IMG/VR virus record: IMGVR_UViG_3300010356_000998
Location: 32,001 to 96,000 of that record
DNA: 64,000 bases
Reading direction: 5' to 3' (one strand)
From: a virus
Taxonomy: Duplodnaviria; Caudoviricetes
Below are positions 16,754-21,486 of the stretch, piece after piece; positions within the stretch are counted from its first letter, which is position 1; every line of letters starts with the position of its first letter. The notes under the pieces were generated by a model. That model saw only the letters and a program-made list of their open reading frames with translations. It did not search any database and was not told where the DNA came from. The translations under genes were made by a program, and so were the position numbers.

Positions 16754-19700
16754 TTAGATGATCCACATTCTTTACATACAGCACACCCTTCTTCAAATAC
16801 AACCGATTTAGATCCACAGTCTAAGCATGATACTGTACTGTTTGTTCCATCAGGAATATATGCTTTAAGTGTTCTTGCTATAGCTTTTGTAAATGAATGT
16901 AACTCACCATCGGTTTTTTGTAATTGCTCAACAATAAAGCGTATTTCTGCGCCATGTCGTAAAGCAGTTGAAATAAGTCTGGTAATAGCTTCTTGTTCAT
17001 CAGTCATCATATAAGCTAATTGATGATATTTACTATTATCAATTATTACGTTATATTTTCCTTTACTTTTTTTAGAAATAATACCTTTACTATAACCTTC
17101 TAATATAAGTTCTGGTACAGCAAATACTTCGTAAGGCTTGTTATCTAATAAACCAACAATAACTGTAAAACCATTACCCTTTACTTTTAAGTGTTTAATA
17201 TCACATTCTAAATCAATAGGTCTTTTAGGTGCGTTTCTTTGTTCAAAAGTATTATTTTTAGTAGTATCTGTTACTAAAACACCTGTCCTACTACCATCTC
17301 TATATACAGTAACTCCTTTAAGATTTGCATCAAAAGCAGTCATATATATAATATCTACTTCTTCAGTAGAAATTTCATTTGGTAGATTAATTGTACTACT
17401 TCATATTTGTCTCATATTTCTATGAGTATGGACTATATCATATTCCTTAATAAAGGAACTCGGACGCTGATACGGTATTACTCATCACGCTTGATGAACC
17501 CGTTAGTCTCTGCACCTTCACTACAAGATCGTGTAGTGCTTGGCTCAATGTTAGCATGATTATTTGCTATTTCTCTGCATAGTTGTAAAAAGTCACTATT
17601 AGTCATATTGTTTTTCATTGTATTAACTCTTTTTGTGACCCACTGGACATTATCTTTAACATACCCTTTATCGGAATTTATTCTATCTAAAGAACACGTG
17701 TGCTTTACTCTATCTTCTTTATTATTAAATTTTGTATTCATTAATAATTCTCTTTGTGTATAAGCACATTTACCATTTTGATTATTCCACAATTCTTCCA
17801 AATATTCTGGTGTAAGATCAAATTCAAAACCTCTTAATTTAGCGTTTCTCTCAATAACTTTAAAATAAGTTAATGAAAGATTATTAGTTAACATTGTATT
17901 TCTTTTAGGTTTTTTTAAATTAGTATTAAAACAGTTATTACAATAAGAAAGTCCTTCCCCTTTACATTTTCTAGTTAATGTGGTATGACCTGTTCTGTAA
18001 ATATGGCCACAATCACATTGTACTTTATAAATAGTATTTCCTTTTTGAAGACCTTCACATTTCAATACTGTTAAATTTTGTACTTTGAATCCGTCAAAAT
18101 AAGTTTTTTTGTCTTTCCATCGCAATTTTCCAGAACACGAACGACATGATTTTGAAAACCCGTTTCGATTAATATAATGTTTTCCAAAAATATATTCTTT
18201 ATCACAAGTACATTTTAATACAAAATGATCTCTACCATTTTCTTTAAATGGTTCTGATACAACTGTCCAGTTGTTTACTTTACTTCCAATTTCTAAATTT
18301 CTTTGCATATTTTATGTATTTTTATTACACAAAGATAATTAAAAATTGATTACTTCAACAGATAACTTACATTTAATTTTAGCCTTCTTTGAATTCATCC
18401 GATTTTCGATACACATTACTGTGTAAAGGCACAAGTTTTTATGCTGTGAGTAGTATATTTTTGAATAATAGATTGAATAAATACTCTATTTTGCCAGTTA
18501 ATATCATTAGCTATTGAACCATACCAAGGAGACATTTTAAAACGTGCTTCTAATTCAGACTTTGGCATCATTTCTATAGAATACGATAATGGATCTGGAG
18601 CAGTTTTATTAATTTGAATTTGAAGCCAATCTTTAAATTTAGGATGAAGTACAGGATATTCCATCCAGTTATCTCCATTTTGATCTGTAAAATCTACTCT
18701 AACACCTGTTTCACCCGGATTAACTTTTTTACGACGCATGTAATATGGTGCAAATAAAGGTTCTAATCCAGAAGTTGTTTGTGTTAAAATACTTACAGAA
18801 CCAGTTGGAGCTACTGTAGACCATGATACATTACGACGTCCCCATTTTATCATTTTTAAAACTTTAAAATAAAAGTTTTCTACTAAAAATTGATAAAATT
18901 CATTACGTCCACTAATAATATCACCATCTATTTTAAATTCACTTTCAGCATCCCAATCTTTAAATGAACCCCTTAATATAGATAAATCAATACTACAATC
19001 TAGTTCTCCTGACATTTTAGTTTGCATCACTCTTTCAATAGTTTCCATAGCTTCTTTAGAATCATATTTTAATCCTAAAGCTGCTAACATATCACCTAAA
19101 GCAGTGAAACCACTACCCGTTCTTCTAGAACTTTCAGCAATATATCTTATATTTTGCCAAAGTTCTAATTCAGTACGTTTAACTGAATCATTTTCAGGAT
19201 CTTGATTGATTTTATCGATAATTCTATCAATGTGTTCTAATTCAAGATCAATTAAATTATCAGCTAATCGTTGTTGTTCATACGCCATTTTATAAAGACT
19301 TTCGTAATCTATTTGAGCATCTTTAGTAAATGGGTTCTTTACAAAGGAATAAAAATTAAGTGCTAATAAACGACAAGCATCATAAGCACTCATGAAAATT
19401 TCTCCACCTTTTTATCTACACTTTATTAATCATGTTTTTAAATTCATTATAATAATCTTTTTCTGTCCACAATTCATTCTTTTTAATTTTTTTAATGTTA
19501 GTACCATTATAATAAAAAATACCTTCTTGTGCAGGATACGAACAAATACACCTTATTGAAGAATTGTTAATACGACTTTTAAATTCTTCAACTGTAATTA
19601 ATTTAGGAAAGGTATCAATTGCAGTTTTTCCATAGTAATTATTCAAAAAACAATGATTAACATTTACTTTTTCAATATCTAACATTAAATTATGACAAAA

Positions 19701-21486
19701 TAAAAATACTTGTAAAGAATCTTCGTTTTTAAATAAATCTTTTTCTATTAATTCTAAAAATAAATTGTATACATCAAAATATGAATCATCAGAGTTATCA
19801 TTAGTATGTTTAGGACTTACAAAATAACCTTCATAAGCAAATCTAATAAACATACCTAATAAAGTTAATTCAATAATTTTTGAATCGTTTTTTACATGTA
19901 CTTCTATTCTTTCACAATCTTTATTATCAATAATTTCAGTTATACAATCTATGAAATTAGATTTAATAATATTTAAATATTTCATAAATTTATCATAATT
20001 TTCTATTTTAACATATTCTATTATAATTGCTACAGGATCTGCAGAAGGAACAGTATAATCATGAGCAAACGAATGAAAACAAGCTTCGTTGGTATGTGTG
20101 TTAATTTCGCCTTTTACTTTTTTAATAAAACTTGAATTGTATGACATAATAACATGATTTGAGTTATTTGTAGTTTGGACTGTATCATAAACTTGCATTA
20201 AGTTTTTCCTTGTCAGTCTCTCGCGGCTTATTGATTAAATTGTCTATGATTTCTTTTAAGATAGCTTTTTCGTCAATGTTAAAGCTATTAGTTAATGTAA
20301 GTATTCTATTTAGTTTATTTAACAATTTATATTCAATCTGTCCGACGGGATTGACCTCTCCAGGTGTTTCCCCGTTAGCCTTATTCAGACCCTCAATTTT
20401 TTGAGATTCGGAATTTTTGTTAAATGGATTATCTTGATATACAATATTTTCAAGTTTCGTAAGTCTATCATAAAGTTCTTGTATTTGTTTTTGAAAGAGT
20501 TTTTCATTTCTGTCAATTCTTTCAAATTGTTTAATATTAAATTGTTGACTCATAATCTATTTAACTTTCCATAAGTATCACTACTTACAGCCGCATGGTA
20601 TGTTTTACGGATTTGTGGTTACCCCTTTGTATTTTGGATAAACTGTATCAGGAGAATAATCCCAGTGTCTATCTACAAATAATATTCCGGGTTCTGCTGT
20701 ACTATGTGCAGCTTCTATCATCTTATCCCAAAGTTCTCGTGCTTTTATTTCTTTAGTAATAGATGGATTATCTGAATCGCAAGGCCATCTCAATGTATAA
20801 TTTGTATTTTGTTTAACAGCTTGCATAAAGTCATCTCTTACCATTACTGAAATATTAGCTCCAGTTACTTTAGTTAGATCTTTTTTAATAGTTATAAAAT
20901 GTTCAACATCAGGATGTCGAACGTCTATGCTTAACATTAAAGCACCTCTACGGCCATTTTGTGCTACTTCTCTTGTACTATTAGAAAATCTCTCCATAAA
21001 ACTAACTGCTCCTGTAGAAGTACCAGCAGCATTAGTTACAGGTGTATTATTTGGTCTCAATGTAGAAATATCAAGACCTACACCACCTCTTCTTTTCATT
21101 AACTGAACTAATTGCTCGTCTTTTTGAAGAATACCTCCATAAGAATCTTCAGGTTGCCCTACCACAAAACAGTTACTTAAAGATCCTATTTTTTTAGAAC
21201 CTAGCATTGACATTATAGATCCTTGTGGTACAACATACTTAAAGTGTTTAAACAAATCATAAATACGTTCTTCTGAAAGATATTCTCTTTCTTGTCCATA
21301 TTTACTTAATTCTGTTCTGTTTTCGGAGTTTTCTTCTTTTTCTTTGTAATTAGATTCAATTCTAGCAAATTCTTTTGCCATTCTTTTGTGCATGTCATCG
21401 GGAGTCGTTTCTCCTTCTTGAGCATACTTTCCTTGCCATACTGACATGGCTAATTCATCTTGATTAAAGTAATTGGATAATGACAT
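16744..21486 (-). CDS. nrdJ: Class II (B12-dependent) ribonucleotide reductase in three exons: 21486-20607, 19407-18441, 17401-16744 (2505 nt, 834 aa spliced)
   Basis: LSNCFV, RRGALM, APTGS, KGVTVYRDGSR and a C-terminal Zn-ribbon. Joining the exons restores TTNP-CGEIFMSAYDACRL and THSI-SSTINLP in frame. Confidence 0.92.
17478..18308 (-). CDS. Intron-encoded HNH-type homing endonuclease
   Basis: Repeated C-x-C / CxxC modules, then QNGKCAY, SLDRINSDKGYVKDNVQW..N.MK. Confidence 0.85.
   Translation of the reverse strand: MQRNLEIGSKVNNWTVVSEPFKENGRDHFVLKCTCDKEYIFGKHYINRNGFSKSCRSCSGKLRWKDKKTYFDGFKVQNLTVLKCEGLQKGNTIYKVQCDCGHIYRTGHTTLTRKCKGEGLSYCNNCFNTNLKKPKRNTMLTNNLSLTYFKVIERNAKLRGFEFDLTPEYLEELWNNQNGKCAYTQRELLMNTKFNNKEDRVKHTCSLDRINSDKGYVKDNVQWVTKRVNTMKNNMTNSDFLQLCREIANNHANIEPSTTRSCSEGAETNGFIKRDE
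18330..18358 (-). promoter_or_regulatory. Bacteroidetes sigma-70-type promoter inside intron 2, upstream of the HNH gene
   Basis: TATCTTTG (-7 consensus TAnnTTTG) at 18337-18330, with TTG 18 nt upstream and the ATG 21 nt downstream. Confidence 0.55.
19416..20198 (-). CDS. Intron-nested hypothetical protein in the P9 loop; no homing-endonuclease motif
   Basis: 260-aa ORF (alternative start MSYNSSF); EACFH, FIRFAYEG and NVNHCF motifs; no HNH, GIY-YIG or LAGLIDADG signature seen. Confidence 0.75.
   Translation of the reverse strand: MQVYDTVQTTNNSNHVIMSYNSSFIKKVKGEINTHTNEACFHSFAHDYTVPSADPVAIIIEYVKIENYDKFMKYLNIIKSNFIDCITEIIDNKDCERIEVHVKNDSKIIELTLLGMFIRFAYEGYFVSPKHTNDNSDDSYFDVYNLFLELIEKDLFKNEDSLQVFLFCHNLMLDIEKVNVNHCFLNNYYGKTAIDTFPKLITVEEFKSRINNSSIRCICSYPAQEGIFYYNGTNIKKIKKNELWTEKDYYNEFKNMINKV
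20185..20553 (-). CDS. Intron-nested 122-aa ORF reading through the ribozyme core (coiled-coil N-terminus)
   Basis: ATG after P2 behind an A-rich leader; open through P4-P8; stop overlaps the S element. Confidence 0.55.
   Translation of the reverse strand: MSQQFNIKQFERIDRNEKLFQKQIQELYDRLTKLENIVYQDNPFNKNSESQKIEGLNKANGETPGEVNPVGQIEYKLLNKLNRILTLTNSFNIDEKAILKEIIDNLINKPRETDKEKLNASL

Follow-up and report, generated by a model that had tools for sequence, protein, structure and literature searches.

Can one stretch of RNA be the catalytic core of a group I intron and, at the same time, a protein-coding gene? This question is raised by a locus in a phage genome (Duplodnaviria; Caudoviricetes), in which a ribonucleotide reductase (RNR) gene is split by a group I intron whose core is traversed by an open reading frame (ORF) of 122 codons, hereafter ORF122. 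The locus lies in a stretch of 64,000 nucleotides (nt), i.e. positions 32,001 to 96,000 of the 108.7-kb IMG/VR virus record IMGVR_UViG_3300010356_000998, which we refer to as the window; coordinates given without a contig name are those of the window. Overlaps between intron ORFs and ribozyme cores have been described before. The I-TevI gene sits in the P6 loop of the td intron, reaching into P6a/P7 with no more than its last 20 nt; the tabulated bacterial overlaps range from 9 to 81 nt, the longest being that of a LAGLIDADG ORF in the large-subunit rRNA (LSU) intron of Synechococcus lividus, which covers P6/P7/P3/P8/P9.0/P9 (PMC3073962). It has also been reported that ribosomes in the I-TevI ORF unfold the core, and that td splicing suffers when I-TevI is translated at the wrong time (Gibb and Edgell 2010, reviewed in PMC3073962). 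In the present case the intron and its exon junction could be defined, the ORF overlaps the core from P3 through J8/7, and its frame is conserved in both close and diverged relatives. With a probability of about 0.65, we interpret ORF122 as a genuine translated intron gene of an undescribed family, whose frame would be threaded through the catalytic core.

The interrupted gene, like all the genes around the intron in that part of the window, lies on the minus strand (Table 1) and encodes the large subunit of a class II (NrdJ-type) RNR, with matches to the Pfam families PF02867 and PF00317 and with TIGR02504 (NrdJ_Z) as the top NCBIfam model. Joining the last U of exon 1 to the GU that opens exon 2 gives Cys and restores the catalytic-site motif N-P-C-G-E-I-F-M. 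For comparison, 67 related RNR loci were fetched from IMG/VR, and in the uninterrupted ones (more than 40) exactly one codon lies between the parts that match exon 1 and exon 2 of the window. Twelve viral loci matched a DNA pattern made from the P7-P3'-P8-J8/7 stretch; eight of them have a compact intron without an ORF, 221-265 nt long, at the same site, NP/CxE (the slash marks the insertion point here and below). In locus L069 and its near-identical twin L070, the intron has moved by 1 nt and P1 has changed to compensate: in L069 (10803-11060, minus strand) it sits one base upstream (..CCU/...G/UGU..) and the guide now reads GGGG, a natural P1 compensation. Among the remaining loci, L072 ends at a contig edge and L073 shares a contig with L065, a homologous intron described below. 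Across nine aligned relatives, double changes were found in 22 of the 43 predicted pairs (in P2, P4, P5, P6, P9 and P9.1), while covariation in P3, P8, P2.1 and P6a was assessed by eye.

The Rfam model RF00028 (Intron_gpI) missed the window, and relaxing the threshold to E<=10 on a slice of 486 nt brought up nothing. It does align over the full length of the compact homologue L080, with 26.2 bits and an E-value of 7e-5; this falls short of the gathering score of 50, yet P1 to P9 are all at their expected places. Furthermore, a covariance model of P3 to P7', trained solely on nine ORF-less relatives, matched the window at 20388..20176 over its full length, with 44.8 bits (E about 1e-9) and a 100-nt insertion in P6a. 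Because of the covariance model, the guide pairing, the restored junction, the L080 alignment and the covariation, the element is, judged by its sequence, a genuine group I intron, for which self-splicing is predicted; its class is most likely td-like (IA2-like). The miss by RF00028 is probably explained by the lineage-specific large insertions.

The secondary structure is supported helix by helix. P1 covaries, being CCCU/GGGG in L069 and GCCGU/GCGGC in L105, an intron closely related to that of the window at another site of the same RNR gene (..NGRR/GA..). The P2 loop changes from GUGA to GUAA in relative X6. The 150-nt stretch that follows P2 was at one point taken as a single-stranded J2/3 insert; this was dropped after comparison with L105, where a short homologous hairpin, GUUGACA/UGUCAAC, shows compensatory changes relative to the window and identifies the stretch as an expanded P2.1 hairpin. 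The closing stem of P2.1, which covers the A and U of the ORF122 start codon, forms a duplex of -11.0 kcal/mol, matched by one of 500 shuffles. P3 appears as UCC/GGA, CCC/GGG and CCU/GGG in the compact relatives and as CUCU/GGAG in L105, and P4 and P5 covary across the family. Of the two small lineage-specific hairpins upstream of J3/4, L065 has a covarying CCC..GGG version of one and an 11-bp version of the second, which holds an ORF. The J6/7-P7-J7/3-P3' stretch is identical or nearly so across all the relatives. Finally, the long-range P9 helix, which closes a loop holding a second ORF of the intron (the cargo ORF), forms a duplex of -13.3 kcal/mol that is matched by two of 500 shuffles and beats all 133 windows within the cargo ORF; L065 closes the loop of its last ORF likewise, with AUCCGU/ACGGAU.

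ORF122 starts with an AUG in the P2.1 stem, passes through P3, P4-P5, P6/P6a, P7, P3' and P8, and stops in J8/7, so that about 230 nt of coding sequence overlap the core, including each core helix from P3 to J8/7; the J3/4-P4-P5-P4' segment (20380..20345) encodes the peptide KANGETPGEVNPVG. In 20,000 dinucleotide shuffles of the 457-nt region, none gave an ORF of at least 122 codons (the longest ORF had a median of 32 and a maximum of 115 codons). As many as 86 of the 122 codons sit in two AT-rich lineage-specific inserts, which are open in 0.7% and, in the case of P6a, 1.9% of the shuffles. The codon-usage score of ORF122 is 0.24, compared to in-frame chunks of the phage genes, whose scores have their median at 0.275 and their 5th percentile at 0.17; the 40 spurious open frames of at least 45 codons found in the window get no higher than 0.02, and the core-encoded half of ORF122 alone outscores every one of them. 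Given the shuffles and the gene-like codon usage, the frame is far beyond chance. The original prediction, made from the letters of the window, had placed here a group I intron with an in-frame TAA at its 5' splice site and an ORF, too long to be accidental, that begins after P2, remains open across P4, P6a, P7 and P8 and overlies nearly the whole core; these claims are borne out by the results above, with the start now located in the P2.1 hairpin.

The leader of ORF122 is A/U-rich and has no Shine-Dalgarno sequence, like those of 46 of the 49 genes of this phage. A Shine-Dalgarno sequence was seen at three of the 49 gene starts of the window, two of which are spurious starts in the intron region, and the leaders are A/U-rich and G-poor in general. 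Leaders of this kind are found in phages of Bacteroidota-like hosts. A promoter-like motif, TAnnTTTG, occurs at chance frequency in the window, with none directly upstream of ORF122. We also noted that the threaded ORFs of the window and of L105 are both in phase with the upstream exon (20553 vs 20607, 54 nt, in the window; L105:9068 vs 8972, 96 nt), with four in-frame stops between exon and ORF in the window and at least one in L105; the shared phase may reflect how the ORFs arose or may be accidental, with odds of about 1 in 9.

Close relatives keep the frame. ORF122 shares 90% identity with the protein clusters P0002 and P0003, whose replacements concentrate in the first 53 residues, encoded by the P2.1 loop, while the core-encoded part is near invariant, as RNA constraint predicts. 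One of the two has an in-frame insertion of one codon, both have 33 additional in-frame codons at the P8 loop, and both end in ..RGL*, consistent with the same UGA in J8/7. At the DNA level, contigs from four metagenome runs are 96-98% identical to the window; for these, only part of the differences was listed. The contigs part from the window exactly between 20198 and 20192, i.e. in the P8 loop, where they hold different inserts: in X8 and X14 the frame stops nine codons past ..DKE, where its end overlaps the start of a new ORF as AUGA; X4 has the frame open on either side of the insert, with X6 sharing the same downstream end. The metagenome runs that contain the sequence come from activated sludge, biofilm and freshwater.

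More diverged relatives were sought with a looser P4-P5-P4' pattern, which found 30 loci. Twenty-eight of these are td-like introns in which the frames over P4 are only 11-64 codons long or, in a few cases, are not intron-like; the short frames in td-like introns indicate that threading is no general by-product of such a core. One further locus, L108, was rejected as a chance match of the pattern within a long gene. In the last, L105, a 172-aa ORF reads the core in the same frame as ORF122 (..QANGETLGEGNPVGQ.., 38 P6a codons, NKPRTTDKEQP), and runs on across the P8-loop insert to a stop directly past P7'; its N-terminal 64 codons, placed between the P3 5' strand and P4, are unrelated to ORF122. 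Since the core model detects only P4-P5 in L105, which has large inserts in P6a and P8, this intron was aligned by motifs.

A profile built from four proteins retrieved ten further clusters, P0013-P0022. Two core-encoded motifs recur in the family, ANGETP..NPVGQ and NKPRETDKE, and seven of the ten clusters (P0013 and P0016-P0021) have both, separated by a variable spacer of roughly 25-50 residues; P0022 begins inside the first motif and P0014 ends ahead of the second. In four members, i.e. P0012 (the L105 protein), P0017, P0018 and P0022, the core motifs are followed, with no intervening Met, by a conserved module CxC..H(Y/H)G(F/Y)K..CTDCNGIKD. Selection on this Cys-rich module would mean that ribosomes read through the core in those introns. 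The module (CxC..HYG..CxxCN) is one that we take to bear a loose likeness to a zinc-bound His-Me finger. A separate observation concerns P0015, a 100-aa protein from a Logan contig, in which the N-terminal module of ORF122 (MQRFNIEQFERIDRNE...NPFNENSES) is joined to a different C-terminal half without the core motifs; the loop-encoded N-terminal module may thus move on its own.

The frame is not kept throughout the intron family. In the ORF-less homologous introns it meets stops after 14-52 codons, and ORF1 of L065 reads P4 in the ORF122 frame and then stops in the P5 loop. Because of these stops, threading is a trait of the expanded-loop sub-lineage and not one of the intron family at large. 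The original prediction had named conservation of the frame among homologous introns as a check on its reading; such conservation holds within this sub-lineage (P0002/P0003, L105 and P0013-P0022) but not in the ORF-less introns. Scans of viral contigs with ORF122, the cargo ORF and the exact P4-P5 pattern gave no match, nor did two scans of metagenome contigs or a blastn search of the intron against a phage collection, and a search of IMG/VR with the family alignment returned the L105 contig only. A DNA pattern of J6/7-P7-P3' gave six matches in genome contigs, which have no intron features and were set aside as chance. Longer fused forms of ORF122 were also looked for, and none was found.

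Table 1. Features of the split RNR gene, its two introns and the ORFs within them (window coordinates)
Feature	Position	Strand	Remarks
RNR exon 1	20607..21486	-	ends ..TTNP + U, first base of the catalytic Cys codon
In-frame UAA on the 5' splice site	20605..20607	-	U20607 (last exon base), A20606, A20605
Group I intron	19408..20606	-	1199 nt; final G19408 (omega-G); boundaries U/..G and ..AAAAG/
Internal guide sequence CCAU-GCGG	20591..20598	-	GCGG with exon 1 CCGU forms P1 (G.U pair); CCAU with exon 2 GUGG forms P10
P2 hairpin GUAAGUA-GUGA-UACUUAU, GNRA loop	20571..20588	-	minimum free energy (MFE) fold; covaries in the family
Expanded P2.1 hairpin	20419..20565	-	stem GUUAAAU.GAUUAU / AUAAUC.AUUUAAC; loop is ORF122 codons 3 to about 40
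ORF122, threaded ORF	20185..20553	-	122 codons, ATG start, TGA stop
P3 5' strand UUCC	20410..20413	-	pairs with GGAA 20209..20206; L080 Rfam alignment agrees
Two small lineage-specific hairpins, CUC..GAG and GUCU..AGGC	20378..20405	-	between P3 5' strand and J3/4; MFE fold
J3/4-P4-P5-P4' (UAA CGGGG AAAC ACCU GGAG AGGU CAA UCCCGU)	20345..20377	-	encodes ANGETPGEVNPV; core model alignment
P6 (CGG/CCG) and long P6a extension	20224..20344	-	extension about 110 nt, 19% GC; codons about 71-110
J6/7, P7 5' strand GACUG (20218..20214), J7/3 ACAA, P3' GGAA (20209..20206)	20206..20223	-	encodes (P)RETDKE
P8 hairpin AAACUU-AAUGC-AAGUUU	20189..20205	-	MFE fold; covaries by eye; loop has ATG 20198
J8/7 AUGAUA and P7 3' strand CAGUC	20178..20188	-	ORF122 stop UGA 20187..20185 within J8/7
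Long-range P9 helix, 5' strands (CUACA .. AAUCAUGUU)	20151..20173	-	just 5' of the cargo start
Cargo ORF	19416..20147	-	243 aa from Met18; 260 aa from ATG 20198
P9 helix, 3' strands (AACAUGAUU .. UGUAG)	19416..19436	-	8 nt before the 3' splice site
RNR exon 2	18441..19407	-	begins GU-GGA-GAA, (..C)GEIFM; ends ..THSI before the second intron
Predicted ligated exon junction		-	..AAUCCGU-GUGGAGAA..
Second group I intron, same RNR gene	17402-18440	-	splits ..THSI/SSTINLP..
HNH-type endonuclease ORF in second intron	18308..17478	-	276 aa; PHROGs endonuclease matches

As to the product, none of the nuclease domains tested for (LAGLIDADG, GIY-YIG, HNH, His-Cys box, PD-(D/E)XK and EDxHD) is recognisable by Pfam or PHROGs in ORF122 or in ten members of its family, and the ESM Atlas gave only sub-threshold neighbours. 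The AlphaFold model of ORF122 has helices at residues 4-39, 69-87 and 93-108, all loop-encoded, and its confidence falls below 50 for residues 41-70, encoded by P3-P5, and for the tail 109-122, encoded by P7-P8. The model may be taken as weakly in line with an arrangement in which the loops supply the modules and the core the linkers.

How such a gene might work can be outlined as follows. The predicted protein helices would be encoded in the lineage-specific loop expansions, i.e. P2.1, P6a and, in the relatives, P8, and the core helices would encode short linkers, ANGETPGEVNPVGQ from J3/4-P4-P5-P4'-P6 and NKPRETDKE from J6/7-P7-P3', which would be conserved because the RNA is. A ribosome on ORF122 would melt P3, P4-P6, P7 and P8, and translation and catalysis would therefore exclude each other on the same molecule at the same moment. 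A ribosome coming from exon 1 would halt at the UAA on the 5' splice site, and the P2.1 stem, hiding the ORF122 AUG, could delay initiation so that the core folds and splices first; ORF122 would then be translated from the excised intron RNA or from precursors that fail to fold. By the time it reaches the UGA in J8/7, a ribosome would have pulled P7 apart, and the cargo AUG, masked by P9, would lie 35 nt further on. Translation of ORF122 thus probably gives ribosomes access to the cargo gene, a coupling suggested by the closeness of the stop to the cargo start, by the AUGA overlap in X8 and X14 and by the close succession of ORFs in L105 and L065. In its boldest form, which we put forward only tentatively and for which the odds are below even, the intron lineage would have built a protein gene from its own ribozyme: modules in the P2.1/J3-4, P6a and P8 loops would have been stitched together by the core, and the passage of ribosomes would be the normal way of opening the ribozyme for downstream cargo expression, partitioning splicing and translation transcript by transcript.

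Several observations speak against a functional ORF122 product. No known domain was found in ORF122 by Pfam or PHROGs, even together with ten family members, and the AlphaFold model is poor overall (predicted local distance difference test, pLDDT, 49, from three sequences). No RNA run was found among the public runs that hold the stretch. Among the listed single-base differences in the close relatives, those in ORF122 comprise one synonymous and four changed codons; the cargo ORF, whose distant homologues are clear, has the same pattern (4 synonymous vs 23), and the exons have 5 synonymous vs 1 non-synonymous. The frame of ORF122 is thus kept while its amino-acid sequence is only weakly constrained. 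Between ORF122 and L105, only 8 of 35 residues are shared in the P6a-coded part, the differences there being spread as 23, 15 and 21 over codon positions 1, 2 and 3, and the family is almost unalignable outside the RNA-constrained motifs. The clusters P0002, P0003 and P0013-P0022 were compared as protein sequences, with DNA covering two threaded introns and part of the variants of close relatives, and such protein matches are open frames by ascertainment; ORF-less and partly threaded homologous introns do exist; the fold of the whole P2.1 insert is insignificant (z = -1.4); and ORF122 has no Cys-rich module, the best evidence for translation in the other members, so that it could be a truncated relic.

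The last point leads to the alternative that ORF122 is a former loop ORF, or a family member that has lost the Cys-rich module, which now runs on through the core as far as the next stop, is non-functional and has stayed open simply because the loss is recent; its translation would be incidental or absent. Such 'core creep' is documented in bacterial and organellar group I introns (PMC3073962, PMC8393795), and the short reading of P4 by L065 ORF1 is a simple case of it in the very same frame. ORF122 is moreover the shortest member of its family, with a minimal P8 loop and five codons after ..TDKEK; its start in the P2.1 loop and the varying extent of the overlap between relatives would suit creep, and the mostly non-synonymous changes and the lack of a confident fold would suit a relic. 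We nevertheless regard this as unlikely, since the AT-rich inserts that hold most of the codons are prone to acquire stops quickly, codon usage is gene-like throughout, and the three P8-loop variants in the near relatives either keep the frame or couple it to a new ORF. In addition, the known bacterial overlaps reach at most 81 nt, against about 230 nt from P3 to J8/7 here, and the frame stays conserved all the way through the core and, in four members, on into a conserved module beyond it. The idea of an open frame arising by chance in a structured, non-coding RNA could appeal to a core that is G+C-richer and stop-poorer than its surroundings, to the silence of Rfam on this intron and to the habit of gene callers of listing any long ORF; with no shuffle reaching 122 codons, a gene-like codon usage, and a frame that survives insertions and persists in L105 and about ten further clusters, it is extremely improbable.

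A further alternative grants that ORF122 is translated and makes it a regulated switch, as the original prediction had proposed: ribosome loading at AUG 20553 would decide between the cargo and spliced RNR mRNA, and so tune RNR output. The physical conflict at its heart follows from the overlap with the whole core, on which translation and catalysis would exclude each other, and a start codon placed within a stem could gate initiation; premature translation of I-TevI is known to impair td splicing (PMC3073962), and introns of the lineage are nearly fully tiled by closely spaced ORFs. The regulatory part, on the other hand, found no specific support, as no switch-specific signal, sensor or alternative pairing was found, the excised intron can serve as message after splicing, which makes the trade-off needless, and ORF-less relatives at the same site splice without such a device. 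A regulated switch is thus quite unlikely, and we retain the reading of ORF122 as a translated intron gene threaded through the core.

The cargo ORF that follows was predicted to overlap the end of ORF122 through its upstream ATG at 20198. While the ORF122 stop does lie in the S element (J8/7), the overlap is probably nominal, because all seven cargo homologues (128-244 aa) start at Met18 (the MSYNSSF position); residues 1-19 of the cargo model have a pLDDT below 50. The true start is probably AUG 20147, in the P9 5' strand, 35 nt past the ORF122 stop. The model as a whole is better (pLDDT 74, predicted template modelling score, pTM, 0.79), although neither Foldseek (E >= 0.1) nor VIA (best Z 6.0) linked it convincingly to a known fold, and the cargo falls into no Pfam family. 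Eight representatives of the cargo family share invariant R119, F147, D160, N179, H182, Y189 and P198, with the motif (F/A)(C/S)(H/N)N...N-x-(N/D)-H-(C/S/A).

ORFs are also carried by the related introns. The homologous intron L065:7566-9706, at the NP/CGE site, has three (235, 169 and 222 aa), of which one sits in a hairpin that separates P3 from P4, one in the loop of P5 and one in P9; the first two overlap by 20 nt, and a further intron-like core match lies on the same contig at 6236-6343; compared with the cargo ORF, the three proved unrelated to it. In L105 (9606-10366), the threaded ORF is followed by two paralogous cargo ORFs (134 and 122 aa) that overlap by 13 nt and share ..MISIVP..F....NPNS.N.IVIG... 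In the second intron of the RNR gene of the window, the last codons of the endonuclease ORF cover a P7-like stretch, GCAGAGACUAACGGG, shortly before AUAUGAUAUAGUCC (J8/7-P7'), which is an ordinary short 'core creep'. RNR genes are a hotspot for mobile elements (PMC3653736, PMC3045599), and at the very codon that holds the intron of the window, other relatives carry inteins (Cys...HN/C): L004:5940-6896, L013:5967-7088 (also L014-L016), L026:5877-6308 (also L027), L038:5976-6932 and L064:4576-5706. The catalytic Cys of NrdJ is hence a common target of both kinds of mobile element. The RNR Cys inteins share the same N-P-/C-G-E point and differ in being in-frame protein-splicing elements, not RNA introns.

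Among the known systems, td/I-TevI is close in many respects. Both are td-like phage introns in a nucleotide-metabolism gene, and J3/4-P4-P5-P4' of the window is nearly that of td; both have an in-frame stop at the 5' splice site, as is the case in many bacterial group I introns, where it stops the exon-1 ribosome (PMC3984707), an ORF that overlaps the core, a start region predicted to be masked by a stem, and ribosomes that would block folding. However, the window has about 230 coding nt from P3 through J8/7 against 20 nt in td, ORF122 is not a GIY-YIG or otherwise recognisable endonuclease, and a separate second ORF, the cargo, follows. Bacterial 'core creep' likewise makes an ORF double as core helices to an extent that varies between related introns, but the overlap in the window is about three times longer and stays in frame across diverged introns, four members reach the Cys-rich module, and the segments lie in several loop expansions, not in one inserted gene. 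Organellar intron ORFs, which are frequently joined to their upstream exon through core sequence (PMC8393795), resemble the present case in that 5' core elements are translated and that ORF122 and the L105 ORF are in the phase of the upstream exon. They differ in that stops separate exon and ORF here, in that the window belongs to a phage with coupled transcription and translation, and in that ORF122 is small, is neither LAGLIDADG nor GIY-YIG, and also spans P7, P3', P8 and J8/7. ORF-core overlap and the interference of ribosomes with splicing are hence already known; what sets the present case apart is the extent of the overlap, the conservation of the frame at two RNR sites, the mosaic of loop modules and the lack of a recognisable endonuclease.

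The overlap of ORFs with intron cores, and the clash between ribosomes and RNA folding that comes with it, is a recognised problem that has been thinly sampled. For annotation, the finding carries a warning, as the motifs ANGETP..NPVGQ and NKPRETDKE flag an intron and not an ordinary protein family, and phage group I introns can carry ORFs without a recognisable endonuclease domain. For the biology of these introns, the locus offers a natural system in which to ask to what extent a single sequence can meet the demands of both a ribozyme and a protein, and in which order translation and self-splicing proceed where transcription and translation are coupled.

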